Shown piece by piece: positions 4,580 through 63,970 of a stretch of 64,000 bases of DNA; within the stretch, counting starts at the first letter, position 1, and every line of letters begins with the position of its first letter. The position numbers and the translations under genes were made by a program. The DNA is from Octopus vulgaris. Taxonomy: Eukaryota. The notes beneath the pieces were generated by a model that did not search any database, was not told where the DNA came from, and was given only the letters and a program-made list of their open reading frames with translations. The stretch lies in NCBI GenBank assembly GCA_951406725.2, contig OX597821.1:23994001-24058000 (forward strand), read 5' to 3'.

Positions 4580-4616
4580 TTTTTACGTTTCGAGCCTATG
4601 CTCTTCGACAGAAAGA
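4580..4616 (-). ncRNA. Minimal hammerhead-like motif, variant core (PLE tail)
   Basis: Minus strand: CTTT-CTGTCGA-A-GAGC ATAG GCTC-GAAA-CG-TA-AAAA. A6 is replaced by U. Confidence 0.5.
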
Positions 4617-4779
4617 TACACAGAAAAAAAACAAGGAGAGAGAAAAAAGTGCATGTAGGAACTAACGATCTATCATGGCGTTCTGACTTCAGGCAGAGGT
4701 CAGAGGTCAGACGCTAGAGGGACAATAGGGGAGATAACAGGGTCAAGTGACTTCCAAAACTAAGGTGTCGCCAACACAA

Positions 4780-5370
4780 AGGTGCGTGTGTGTATAAGAG
4801 AGTATGTATGAGCGTGTGAAAGATGGCTGGTGGTCTGGACGTGTGTATGTATGTATGTGTGGGTGTGGAGATGGGTATGTGGGTGGTGTGTTGTGATGTG
4901 ATATGTGTATGTTGGTGTAAAGATGTGGGGATGGGTGTGTGGGCAGTGTGCTGCGTTGTGATGTGATGTGTAATGTTGTATGGTGTAGTGGAGTGTGGTG
5001 TGATGTTGTGGGGAGGGGGGAAAGCCCAGGTGGGGTGTGGGTTTGGCTAGAGTGGGGGTTGTGGGGAGAGTGAGAGGGGAGGGGGAGGGGAAAGAGGAGG
5101 GGGACGCGGAGAGGAGGGGAGTGGTAGAGAGAGAAGGAGAGGGGGAGAAGGAGGAGGGGAGAGGCAGAGAGGAGGAGAGTGGTAGGGAGAGGAGGAGAGG
5201 TAGGTAGAGGAGGAGGAGGTGGAGGGAGAGGAGGAGGATGGGAGCAGGGGAGGGAGACGGGAGAGAAGGGAAGAGGAGGGAAAGAGAGTAGGGGTGAAAA
5301 GATGAAGGACTGAAGAAAAGTAGAGTTGGGGGGGGGAGGTTAGATGAAAAGGGGGGGAGAGTTGAGCCCA
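4780..5370. repeat. GT-rich then polypurine (GGA/GAG) low-complexity tract
   Basis: About 300 nt of almost pure G/A on the + strand at 5060-5360, preceded by degenerate (GT)n. Confidence 0.9.
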
Positions 5371-5374
5371 AATG

Positions 5375-5615
5375 GCGTAAAAGAGCGAAGAGAGTGTGCG
5401 CCCTCTGGTATTGCGAGTAGATGGCTTCCAGAAGAGAAAAGTAGAAATTACCTCTTTTTCAGCTCTACAACAATGTCCAGCAAACTGGACTCTCCTACCT
5501 TTCACAAGAGATGACACAGGTGGTAGTTTCCCATATATTTGCATTTTGGTTGAATGGCGCTTCCATGAGAGATTTTGAGCTCTCATAAGGAGGCGAGTGT
5601 AGGTTCCATACAACA
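5375..5615 (-). mobile_element. LINE (RTE/RTE-X-like) C-terminal fragment
   Basis: [41 protein letters not shown], typical of the post-RT region of RTE-group LINEs. Confidence 0.8.
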
Positions 5616-6717
5616 TGTGTATATATATATATATATATATATACACACATCTATATACATACATATATATATATATATATATATATATATATACACACAC
5701 ATCTATATACATATACACATATATATACATATATATATGTATATATATACATATACACATATATATATACACACACACATATATATACATATATATATGT
5801 ATATATATACATATACACATATATATATATATATATATATATATATATATATATATATATACACAATATATATATATATATATATAACACACATATATAT
5901 ATATATATATATATATATATAATAACAAAGTGAAGTTGTAAGGTACCAAACCTTCTTTCATATATAATTCTACTCGTGCGGTACCTTACAACGTCACTTT
6001 CTTATATGTAAACACCACACGAGTCCCGAAAATGCCACCTAAGTCACAACAAGCAGAAAACTTATTGAACCAAAGCATCCTAAAAGAATTCAATTTTTTT
6101 CTAAAAAAGTGAAACCGGTCAAGTAAATAAACATCTTTTAAAATTGTATTTTCAAACCTTCTTTCATATATACATATATATATATATATATATATATATA
6201 TATATATATATATATATATATATATATATCTTTTCTTCAATTAACTTGAATCCTTAACCTGCCCTTACCATCATTCTTATAACTAAGGAAATTTTTCTTA
6301 CAGCAGTTAGTTGCGAACTTAATTTTGGTCTGTTTGGCATCCTAACATTACTATCTCATGTTCCTGAAATTCATATCAACATCTTTATCTGTATATTTAC
6401 CTTCTCTAGGATGTTACTAATTGATTTGAGAATTTTATATTATTGGAAAACCTATATGAAATTAGCTGAAGATTACTTGATATATCTGCTGTAATATTTA
6501 CAGCTTTTAATAAAATGTTATAGTATGAAACAATTGTACTAAATTACCGGATCCATTCTTGTTGCTTATTTTTTATTATAATCACCCCGCATATTTTTAT
6601 GGATAATACCATTAAAATTTCTGGTGCATCTAAATTAAGTACCATATTCATTTGAATCTAAATTGTTTGCTGAACTTATATATATATATATATATATATA
6701 TATACACACATATATAT

Positions 6718-7015
6718 GGAGGTGCAATGGCCCGGTGGCTAGAGCAGCGGACTCGTGGTCGTAGGATCGCAGTTCCGATTCCCAGACCGGGCGTTGTGAG
6801 TGTTTATTGAGCGAAAACACCTAAAGCTCCACGAGGCTCCAGCAGGGGGTTGTGGCGATCCCTGCTGTACTCTTTCGCCACAACTGCTCACTCTTTCTTC
6901 TGTTGGCCTGCACGCTTAGCCAGTGGGGTGGCATCATTTGAAGGCTAAAACAATGCGAAGCGCATTGTGACCAGCGATGTGTAGCAACATCTGATAGCCT
7001 GGTTGGTCACGGTGA
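6718..7015 (+). mobile_element. tRNA-derived SINE, family B
   Basis: Head GGAGGTGCAATGGCCCGGTGGCTAG..GTTCCGATTCCC (box A/B). Homologous to copies at 12634, 42338, 44585 and 60700. Confidence 0.9.
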
Positions 7016-60699: not shown

Positions 60700-60976
60700 T
60701 CACGTGACCGACCAGACCATCAGATGTTGTTACACATCGCTGTTTTAGCCTTCGAATGACGCCACCCCGCTGGCTAAGCGAGCAGGCCAACAGAAGAAAG
60801 AGTGAGAGAAAGTGTGGTGAAAGAGTACAGCAGGGATCACCACCCCCTGCCAGAGCCTCGTGGAGCTTTTTAGGTGTTTTCGCTCAATAAACACTCACAA
60901 CGCCCGGTCTAGGAATCGAAACCGTGATCCTACGACCGCGAGTCCGCTGCCCTAACCACTGGGCCATTGCGCCTCC
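60700..60976 (-). mobile_element. SINE family B
   Basis: Family match. Confidence 0.92.
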
Positions 60977-61004
60977 ACACACACACACACACATATATAT
61001 ATAT

Positions 61005-62613
61005 AAATAAGGTATTTGAGAACAGTTATATACTTACACAAAAATGACTCTAAGAAACAGACAATAATGCCTTTTTACTGAAAATATTTTTGAGGATAAG
61101 AATAAACATACTATTTTGTCATTTTATTCAATAAAGACTCCTTCAGCTTCAATAACGGCTTTATAGATTAATAGATTGTACTTCATCTAATGTGATTCTA
61201 CTCAGAGGGCTGTAATATCATTTGACAGGAAACAGGGTATAAAGAATACATAAAACATGGCTGTGACTTTATATACCTTTAATGTGGCCACACGTATGCA
61301 CACGAACTGATTGATAAAAATGAAAGTGGTTTGATGCGTGGAGGCCATGGTCTTCTGTGCGTTAGCTATCTGCTACTGGCGTGTGGTGTGAGAGAGGACC
61401 GGTTAGGTTACGTCTTCACAGTTTCGTGTCCTGATGCAGAAAGAGGTAGTCGTAAGGGCTCGTGCCAGAATCTCACACTCTAACGCCATCTAGTGCCAGT
61501 TTGTTTAGTCCCGCTGTCAAGGTGGGTAACTGCGCCTACAGCTTCTATGCGAGGTCTGAATCGCCTATATGCTAGGATCAAGTGGTTTGTGTTCATATTG
61601 GACATTACTCTGACTATGGAGACTTTTAGGGATTCTTTGGTGTTATGAGGGTGCTCATTAACCAAGCATAGTAGTCGAATGGATTGAGATCAAGGGAGCT
61701 AGGAGGGCAAATGTTGTGGGTTATGTGGTCATGAACATTTTCCGCCATCCATTCCTGCGTTACTGTAGCCTTGTGTGATGGTACCGAGTCTTGTTGAAAC
61801 ACATAAGGTCTTCCGTTGTGTATATTATCGATCCATATCTTAACCACTGTATTCAGAACATCTATGTATGCAGCAGAGTTTACTCAAAGACTTTGTGGAA
61901 AGAAGTGAGGAGGCATCACGTCTTTCATTGCTGACAACTCCCAAAACAATGACAGTTTCAGGAAATTTTGTATGCATTACTCATTGAACTTCCGAAGGGT
62001 CTGTACATAGCCATCTATCATTTCTTCTGTTTACATTCTGATTTTCATCAAAGTTTTTTCTCGTAGAGAAGAACCAAATGACATCTTTCTCTTCTGGGTT
62101 TTTAAGTTTGTTCTGGAGTCTTCTAGATCTGATTAAGCGATATTTCTACACTTTTCTGACATGAAATTACCTTTCCTTATCACATAAGATTTATATTTGA
62201 TGTCTTTGTGGACAACATTCCGGATTGTTCTTTTTGACACATGGTGTTCTTTAGCAATCAGCCTCATGGATCTTCTGGGGTTGTCATGAAGGGTCTGCTT
62301 TACTCGTTGAATAAATTCTGGTGTTCTAATAGTCTCAGTGCGTCCACAATGTTTGACACTGGCGATACATTTCCGTTTTTAGCCTCTAACTCTTTGCAAA
62401 TTTTGTAGACGAAGGACCAGGCGGCTTCTAAAAATCGTGCTGTTTCTAAATTGCTATGTTCAGCCTTTAGAGCCACGATGACAACGTGCTTCTTAATTTC
62501 TTGTGTAATCATAGGGTCTGCCATTGATAATTCTGAAATATAGAAAATATTAAGTTGATAAATATGCTGCTATAGTAAAATTAATATATGTTCTCAAATA
62601 CCTTACGCACCCT
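61005..62613 (-). mobile_element. maT-type Tc1/mariner relic with internal insertion at about 61170-61535
   Basis: TIR core TAAGGTATTTGAGAACA at both ends. WFFSTRKNF (decayed FSDEK), YVFQQDSVPSH, PPSSLDLNPFDY. Confidence 0.88.
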
Positions 62614-63391
62614 GTATATATACATATATATATACATATATATACATATACACACACACACACATATATATATACACACACACACACACACACACACACA
62701 CACACACACACATATATATATATATATATATATATATATATATATATATATATATATATACAAGATAAGAAAATGGAGAAATACACCTAAATCAAATATC
62801 AATTACCATATAATACTCAATCACATACTTTATTAAACCACCACATAAGAGACTGTAGGGTTAGATATAAAAAGCAGAACAACAGTATATTGGATATATG
62901 TTATCCCATGGAGGGCTGCATTTACAACCCCTATCTCAATTTGTGTATATATATATATATATATATATATATATATATATATATATATATATATATAATA
63001 AAATATGTGGAATTCCATTAAATAAGTCTAAAAAAACATATAATAGATGCACCAACAAACGGAAAACAAGCAGAAAAGGTCACTAAATCTTCATCAGTTA
63101 TCAGCCAGAGGGTCAAACGCATTATCGTTGAAAGCGCGAAATTGCGGACTCGGGTCCGTATGTATCATGTCAGGCTGGAGATGAGAACGATGATTTCCCT
63201 TTGCAAATACTGATAGGCACAGTGTGTTAATAGCCAACTGGAGGAGATGTCTTCCTTGGGCTATAAGGTACAGTAGCAACGTTCCTAATGGGTCAGCCAC
63301 TTTTAGGTGGCAAATATACATCATAACATATATATATATAATTCTGTCAGAATGGAGTAAGTTGAACAAGAACACACACGAAAACGAAAAG

Positions 63392-63436
63392 TGTCACTGA
63401 AGAAGTCACAGATGTGTGACGAAAGATTTCTGGACA
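63392..63436 (+). ncRNA. Type I hammerhead ribozyme (PLE tail)
   Basis: TGTCA-CTGAAGA-A-GTCACA GATG TGTGAC-GAAA-GATT-TC-TGGACA. Confidence 0.72.
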
Positions 63437-63897
63437 ATGGACATGAGTTAAAATAATAAAATAAGAACAGTAATAAACGAGTGAAGAAAAAATATATAGT
63501 GCGTGTGTTTATTTGGCAAAAAAGAAAAAAATGACCGACGCGAAATACAACAACATACATACATACATACATACATACATACATACATACATACATACAT
63601 ACATACATACATACATACATACATACATACATACATACATATATAATGACCGTCCCGAAATACAAATATATATATATATATATATATATATATATATATA
63701 TATATATACATAAAAGTAAATAAATGGTACAACGAAGCACCGATATCTACTGGAAAATAGCGAACGTAATAAATACGACGCTAATGTATAGCTTCACTGT
63801 GTATGTACTAGTAAAGATGCGTGTGTGCAACAAACATGAAAAATTGTCTTACCTCTAGGAAAAACATCTGAAAAATGAAAAACCTAGATAATGGATA

Positions 63898-63970
63898 ATG
63901 TAGTACCGGTTTCGGATTTTTCAAGATACGCTTGCCAAACGTATACTTGATTTATCCTCATCAGCTGCAT
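63898..63970 (-). ncRNA. Type I hammerhead ribozyme, intact core, long stem II
   Basis: ATGCAG-CTGATGA-GGAT..TCAAG.ATACG..CGTAT.CTTGA..ATCC-GAAA-CCGG-TA-CTACAT. Palindromic stem III ACCGGT. Confidence 0.85.

Follow-up and report, generated by a model that had tools for sequence, protein, structure and literature searches.

Two questions are raised by a 64,000-nt stretch of the Octopus vulgaris genome (contig OX597821.1 of assembly GCA_951406725.2, positions 23,994,001 to 24,058,000; hereafter the window): are the many hammerhead ribozyme (HHR) motifs that it appears to hold genuine, and which elements brought them there? An original prediction, made from the letters of the window, had listed 15 sites, spoken of about a dozen HHR motifs, and proposed that many distinct families of Penelope-like element (PLE) tails had seeded this DNA. 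We find about 20 HHR motifs falling into 10 or 11 unrelated groups. The set consists of true type I HHRs, mostly decayed, and these are quite likely fossil tails of PLEs together with retrozyme-like derivatives. A known association, that of PLE-type HHRs, would thereby be placed in a new lineage; in the literature searched, it is apparently unreported in cephalopods.

Detection of hammerhead motifs

A strict descriptor of the type I HHR matched the window four times, with C3 at 23119(-), 23907(+), 26155(-), and 63964(-), against means of 0.075 and 0.05 and a maximum of one match in two sets of 40 dinucleotide shuffles of the same 64 kb. A comparison of this kind had been proposed with the original prediction as its own check and, run on the window only, it comes out in favor of the motifs. 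A scored scan tolerating two core changes gave nine matches at a score of 18 or more, versus a mean of 0.1 (maximum two) across 60 block shuffles; the reversed window had no match at that score. Results of that scan below 18 are unsafe because the reversed window yields three to five matches there, and the genuine motifs at 23907, 54684, and 38249 escaped it. A one-mismatch descriptor, run without a shuffle control, returned 11 matches, four of them chance-like; the sites at 8337, 10671, 27387, and 58474 from this run were dismissed as likely chance, as were those at 42190 and 23593 from the scored scan and the site at 42191. Rfam covariance models at the gathering score had no match window-wide, as expected of short or long-looped variants. 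Four local Rfam searches gave one sub-threshold match, to Hammerhead_HH9, and a whole-window Rfam scan by E-value was dominated by microsatellites. Profile searches with the families added no members apart from two weak matches, and a tRNA search of the window found none.

Twenty motifs were laid out by hand over the span from C3 to H17 and compared with the type I design, in which the conserved core (C3-A9, G12-A15.1, U16.1, and H17) sits in a three-helix junction with an open stem I. Fourteen of the 15 predicted sites are type I HHRs, and each of their predicted positions falls 4-6 nt before a span that can be laid out. The remaining site, 14471, has an intact core starting 39 nt into a 70-nt palindrome but lacks stem I and is doubtful. 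All five cores predicted to be canonical (23089(-), 23902(+), 26077(-), 63392(+), and 63898(-)) are unchanged; the strict descriptor accepts four of them and rejects 63392 solely for a 1-nt bulge in stem I. The four predicted single changes are U16.1C (38215), G5U (47254), G8A (54678), and U4C (58175). The six sites described as more decayed proved uneven, with one core change each at 4580, 39432, and 58243, two at 37122, three at 40883, and none at 14471. Scans and self-alignment added five whole motifs to the earlier list, at 6466(+), 49766(-), 49303(-), 19185(+), and about 23406(-), and a half motif at 3021(-). In total the core is unchanged in 7 of the 20 laid-out motifs, six of which have stem I, and changed in the other 13, mostly at one to three positions, with one motif carrying more; even copies with an intact core show helix mismatches.

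Families, folds, and layouts

The claim of many distinct families holds, as the flanks of the groups are without cross-matches; families H, I, J, and K are singletons (Table 1). HHR paralogues are 39-66% identical, and pairing between them is preserved by changes on both sides of a helix, in three pairs of stem II in family C, three of stem I in family B, and one of stem I in family A. These double changes argue for selection on the fold in the parent elements, and the scattered core changes for its absence in most genomic copies. Most of the HHR copies here are probably dead. Inverted 5'-truncated copies and a partial tandem occur at the loci starting at 58140, 2866, 14471, and 49099; the palindrome at 14471 sits inside the microsatellite tract of a two-part repeat resembling short interspersed nuclear elements (SINEs). 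The two HHRs of pair G lie 463 nt apart, slightly above the 150-450 bp range of retrozyme units, in 1.5 units that terminate in (TA)n(TG)n, and their folding is unremarkable (z -0.73). This tandem is inserted beside a Cys-rich frame at 49780-50100(-) that has no Pfam match and that we take to resemble a DNA-transposon protein.

Palindromic stems III had been predicted and are present: stem III is self-complementary at 42 of 50 inner positions, a figure inflated by hand-chosen stem limits. Isolated stem III pieces are predicted to form a monomer hairpin in none of 11 cases, and their predicted self-duplexes range from 0 to -14.3 kcal/mol. An extra base between A9 and 10.1 is clear in families A and D, absent from B, E, H, and I, and ambiguous in C, G, J, and K.

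The predicted (TA)n neighbors and preference for microsatellites stand in weaker form. A tract of (TA)5 or longer lies within 150 nt of 8 of 15 sites against a background of 24% (p=0.012), which is only about half, and within 100 nt of 4 of 15, which is not significant (p=0.23). Any microsatellite lies within 150 nt of 11 of 15 sites against a background of 39% (p=0.007). Any bias is modest, with p spanning 0.007-0.47 by threshold and set, uncorrected for thresholds. Most motifs reach a microsatellite or other repeat within 200 nt, which leaves little room for a PLE reading frame.

Table 1. Hammerhead motifs and the repeats that carry them, in window coordinates
Feature	Position	Strand	Remarks
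Family A minimal type I HHR	23093..23119	-	intact core, extra A after A9, 4-nt palindromic stem III, pyrimidine-rich 5' flank
Family A copy	4584..4611	-	A6U; 3' tail absent; adjoins mariner-like fragment
Family A copy	37127..37154	+	A6U and G8A; (TA)n tracts on both sides
Family A copy	40888..40915	-	U4C, G5A, A6U; adjoins (ACAT)n
Family B element	23838..24137	+	about 300 bp; imperfect long hairpin 23838-24037 with HHR at tip, 100-nt 3' tail; dispersed, multi-copy
Family B HHR	23907..23944	+	intact core, 5-bp stem I, 7-nt loop II, 12-nt near-palindromic stem III
Family B copy	54665..54743	+	core 54684-54719, G8A; also inside hairpin; whole-length HH9 alignment below threshold
Decayed family B-like copy	39437..39470	-	C3U, broken stem I; weakest member, 39-50% identity
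Family C HHR	26082..26155	-	intact core, long loop II, 8-nt stem III
Family C copy	19185..19260	+	G8A and U16.1C
Family C copy	23330..23406	-	decayed core, perfect 8-nt palindrome
Family D HHR	63397..63430	+	intact core, extra A after A9, 1-nt stem I bulge
Family D half	2866..3151		135-nt inverted repeat whose center cuts HHR in loop II; 3' half only, at 3021 on minus strand
Family E head-to-head inverted pair	58140..58311		HHRs 58181-58210(-) and 58248-58275(+); both U4C; arms 75% identical
Pair G partial tandem	49099..49778	-	two 217-bp repeats, 90% identical; HHRs 49709-49766 and 49243-49303; both C3U
Singleton HHR	47259..47331	-	G5U, 6-bp stem II, 8-nt palindromic stem III, between (TA)n tracts
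Singleton HHR	63904..63964	-	intact core, 6-nt palindrome; upstream flank leaves window
Singleton HHR	38219..38249	-	U16.1C; U-U at base of stem II
Singleton HHR	6466..6538	+	intact core, weak stem II, 8-nt palindrome, between (TA)n tracts
Perfect 70-nt palindrome	14471..14540		HHR core in each arm, stem I absent; doubtful; related remnant 11169-11216

Family A and the shared A6U core

Common features of the four copies of family A are the pyrimidine-rich 5' flank, the extra A after A9, the 4-nt palindrome, and a 3' tail (missing at 4584). The three copies with U6 are 59-65% identical among themselves, compared with 51-57% to the canonical copy. The HHR literature searched holds no mention of A6U. 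An animal-like contig (L001, 1007-1299) carries a short insert whose HHR is designed like that of family A; the insert contains an inverted duplication and is flanked by a duplication of 13 bp.

Family B, a hairpin element

In family B the HHR is built of a stem I of 5-6 bp and a stem II of 4 bp with an A-rich loop of 6-7 nt. Its copies were checked by aligning the contigs of four sequencing runs at 80% likeness, where summed depth is not a copy number. In one run (X1), locus-sized pieces have a depth of 45-74, whereas the summed depth reaches 950-1770 at the HHR, 3000-3750 in the right arm, and 1400-2400 across 24054-24137, with drops to 105-130 at 24012-24032 and 24138-24158. From this pattern family B emerges as a dispersed repeat roughly 300 bp in length (23838-24137), probably with tens of close copies. 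In run X14, presumed to be RNA, coverage of 23844-24137 is thin and 24138-24360 is uncovered; no conclusion was based on this run. A second multi-copy repeat, at 24137-24360, starts where it ends. Classification as a miniature inverted-repeat transposable element (MITE) was ruled out, since about 100 bp of the element lie beyond the right arm, in a tail that contigs connect to that arm. The best 15 of 45 joints include no head-to-tail junction internal to the element. At position 23939 the majority letter in all four runs gives a perfect 12-nt stem III palindrome, from which the 23907 copy itself deviates, and a 12-nt insertion completing the left arm occurs in one contig in each of three runs. 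The 23907 locus was found under three organism labels, each contig piece showing 0-7 differences, and the insertion is therefore not recent.

The 23907 hairpin of about 200 nt folds with a z-score of -7.6, the 300-nt unit with -5.1, and the second family B copy with -2.4. For both copies, the monomer is predicted to have its catalytic core base-paired to the 5' strand of stem III, with self-pairing of the palindromes predicted at -14.3 and -8.6 kcal/mol; on these folding models, the monomer may possibly be silenced by a built-in switch, with the core freed in the dimer. The copy at 54665-54743 aligns to positions 1-77 of the 77 in Rfam Hammerhead_HH9 (RF02275) at 20.3 bits (gathering score 52), with an E-value of 0.011 obtained only in a 301-nt search. 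The minimal HHRs of the original prediction do not fit every family: family B carries a canonical type I HHR, whose distal stem I is that of the HH9 model. With a length of about 300 bp (within 150-450 bp), less than 50% GC, no reading frame, and a type I HHR, the unit agrees with retrozymes in these respects and is closer to a retrozyme monomer of the kind without long terminal repeats (non-LTR) than to a minimal HHR.

Density and genomic load

The window holds one strict motif per 16 kb (95% range one per 6-59 kb); it was flagged for its denseness, and the genome mean may be lower. According to the repeat annotation of O. vulgaris (PMC13282606), whose main text mentions neither ribozyme nor hammerhead, 190 PLE families account for 6.83% of the genome, with a burst at distance 0.2. 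Taken with rough ends, the HHR inserts sum to 4.6 kb, or about 7.15% of the window, compared with the 4.4 kb that 6.83% of 64 kb would give. The density needs no special cause, because the insert share is close to the published PLE load: the high ribozyme density claimed by the original prediction is real in the window, but about what the octopus PLE load predicts. The density nonetheless stands high beside counts made elsewhere with other descriptors: about 120,000 HHRs in the 28-Gb axolotl genome, upward of 6,000 in Acropora, and some 5,000 in mussel.

Origin of the motifs

In the explanation that we favor, the motifs are the fossil ends (pseudo-LTR tails) of many PLEs, along with short non-coding retrozymes copied by PLE enzymes. 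In the parent elements the HHR would have cleaved tandem transcripts. Following the literature, a lone palindromic stem III would be unstable, so that two ribozymes would pair through the palindrome and cleave as a dimer. PLE enzymes would be the mover: the endonuclease would nick AT-rich or microsatellite DNA, and target-primed reverse transcription would start at the 3' tail and mostly halt after 100-300 nt. The product would be an HHR-bearing tail, sometimes an inverted pair or a partial tandem, and the copies would decay afterwards. Such a history starts from what the DNA displays directly (the motifs, the families, the fold-preserving double changes, the inverted and tandem layouts, and the multi-copy family B), adds HHR cleavage and expression as proposed steps, and takes its PLE assignment, which is partly supported, from architecture and the literature.

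Several results weigh against an origin in PLEs. A PLE frame was sought by Pfam among the 150 longest of 531 filtered frames (the 381 shorter ones were motif-scanned only), by matching motif patterns against all six frames, and among 15 flank frames, and none was found; linking the flanks to PLE reverse transcriptase (RT) or GIY-YIG frames, a check proposed with the original prediction, thus failed beside every motif in the window. A suspected GIY-YIG remnant upstream of 38249 led in a phmmer search to one unrelated bacterial repeat protein and was attributed to chance. A clear target-site duplication was present at none of the seven inserts tested. Pattern searches of viral, metagenome, and genome contigs found no outside locus of these families; their sole match, on contig L001, is another animal's short insert that has no PLE frame and does not belong to these families. 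Roughly half of the motifs lie away from (TA)n, and the agreement with the published 6.83% depends on hand-chosen insert ends. The missing frame is expected for 5'-truncated tails, and its absence therefore lowers PLE membership, not likeness. The PLE origin first claimed is accordingly upheld in architecture and fit to the literature, but not in the reading frame that was sought.

Rather improbable as a general account, and most plausible for family B, is that the HHR pieces are SINE-like or retrozyme elements moved by long interspersed nuclear elements (LINEs) of the RTE, CR1, or L1/Tx1 types, or amplified as RNA circles without PLE enzymes. The window has no PLE frame yet does contain RTE-type and L1/Tx1-like fragments, and family B has its canonical HHR in a 300-nt unit that is strongly self-paired (z -5.1), as are the 170-400-nt retrozymes of PMC7229834. 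However, inverted head-to-head copies and partial tandems are characteristic of PLEs, retrozymes in Xenopus are found alongside PLEs and match pseudo-LTRs (bioRxiv 10.64898/2026.07.22.740005), and the HHR tails have no sequence in common with the LINE or SINE copies of the window.

We consider it distinctly unlikely that some motifs are working ribozymes kept by the host in introns or untranslated regions, where they would cut or circularize host RNA. The six motifs with both stem I and an unchanged core would suit such a role, as would the occurrence of the 23907 locus under three organism labels with so few differences, but most copies have core changes, helices are mismatched even where the core is intact, the 23907 copy has left the perfect palindrome of its family, and no host exon was recognized among the frames scanned. 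Chance matches in AT-rich, repeat-rich DNA, suggested by the lack of an Rfam match at the gathering score, by the three to five low scorers of the reversed window, and by the missing stem I at 14471, are refuted for the set by four matches against a maximum of one and nine against a maximum of two in shuffles and by families with compensatory changes, so that this explanation has a negligible probability and stands only for the weak sites 14471, 11197, and 42191.

Other elements of the window

The GC content of the window is 39%, tandem repeats fill 107 rows of its annotation, and Pfam recognizes fragments of mariner, Helitron, RTE-type, and L1/Tx1-like elements. Helitron PIF1 helicase fragments lie at 28012-30094 (Pfam) and, by eye, at 35081-35592 and 43999-44379. 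A decayed L1/Tx1-like LINE at 15226-16797 has RT and zf-RVT matches below the cut-off, and a homologue search with its frame at 16042-16794 found none. The open reading frame at 763-1185 has 10 relatives; all three with an organism name are from Octopus bimaculoides. The two-part SINE-like repeat, whose halves flank a microsatellite, occurs in about a dozen copies, among them 13147-13695, 18189-18840, 22212-22690, 30573-30950, 38584-39138, and 53397-53804. Between (TA)n tracts at 31080-31553, a 470-bp insert with a 26-bp terminal direct repeat and a 15-bp hairpin at about 31245-31285 has a PLE-type layout without a clean HHR. The long inverted repeats at 632-689, 32325-32451, 36623-36926, and 56807-56911 contain no readable HHR. 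Pairs of terminal inverted repeats around 400-900 bp (26688-26909 with 27375-27595, 37311-37865, 58640-59292, and 60423-61336) are probably MITEs or DNA-transposon remnants.

Implications

Three things stand out: how dense the motifs are, what family B is, and that A6U, C3U, and U4C cores are each shared between copies. What HHRs do in PLEs has yet to be settled (PMC8557442), and many old families, some of which share core changes dating from insertion, would amount to a natural mutagenesis experiment in which the family-level cores show whether cleavage was needed to spread. Cephalopods would also join the retrozyme-bearing animals, and part of their unclassified repeats would be accounted for. 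A bolder joint reading, which we hold to be possible but doubtful, is that the octopus genome has some 175,000 intact-core HHRs (four per 64 kb over 2.8 Gb, range 48,000-450,000, assuming a typical window), that family B is a new retrozyme, and that a subfamily spread with a crippled A6U core. Were it true, the HHR density would exceed that reported for axolotl more than tenfold, the family B monomer would fold its core onto the stem III palindrome and would have to pair with a second copy to be released, and PLE enzymes would need the shape or position of the hammerhead rather than its cleavage.

Comparison with known systems

Animal retrozymes are tied to pseudo-LTRs, and one of nine tested dimers cleaved (Li, Clavereau and Pollet 2026, bioRxiv 10.64898/2026.07.22.740005); octopus is not mentioned in the available text of this preprint or of PMC7229834. 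Family B resembles the non-LTR retrozymes of both sources in its length of about 300 bp, canonical-type HHR, and strong predicted self-pairing in the 23907 copy, and pair G resembles them in having two HHRs, 463 nt apart, in direct repeats. Unlike them, family B is solo, with no head-to-tail joint among the best 15 of 45, and pair G has 1.5 units, U3 cores, and unremarkable folding (z -0.73); solo monomers are nevertheless described in the preprint. With the canonical type I fold of Hammerhead_HH9 (RF02275), the 54684 copy of family B has in common an internal loop and a distal stem I, and it differs in G8A and a longer palindromic stem III.

Core variants with U3, U4C, or a changed A6 occur naturally, and A6C cleaves at less than 0.1 per minute (Perreault et al. 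2011, PMC3088659). Compared with these, A6U is here common to three related copies, and of two pairs one shares C3U without A8 and the other U4C. The one strict motif per 16 kb of this window may be set against about 9,000 HHRs in X. tropicalis and about 4,000 in coelacanth, counted with the descriptor of PMC4209133.

Metazoan PLE HHRs are characterized by an extra base after A9, G10.1-C11.1, and a palindromic stem III (Cervera and de la Pena 2014, PMC4209133), and dimer cleavage by HHRs has been summarized (Weinberg et al., PMC6765202). Several families here depart from this design in the 39-59 nt between their core halves, a consequence of long loops II, and in palindromes of 8-12 nt, and no PLE frame was seen in the window. 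Families A and D share the extra base after A9, most copies have G10.1-C11.1, and palindromic stem III and short stem I are likewise as in the minimal HHRs of PLEs. Also as in that report, divergent families are many per genome, and copies are mostly single and dispersed, with some opposite-strand pairs. Finally, PLEs, in which the role of the HHR is described as unclear, form inverted 5'-truncated copies and partial tandems and show a microsatellite bias (Craig et al., PMC8557442), and the head-to-head pair starting at 58140, the inverted repeat starting at 2866, and the partial tandem starting at 49099 are like these arrangements.

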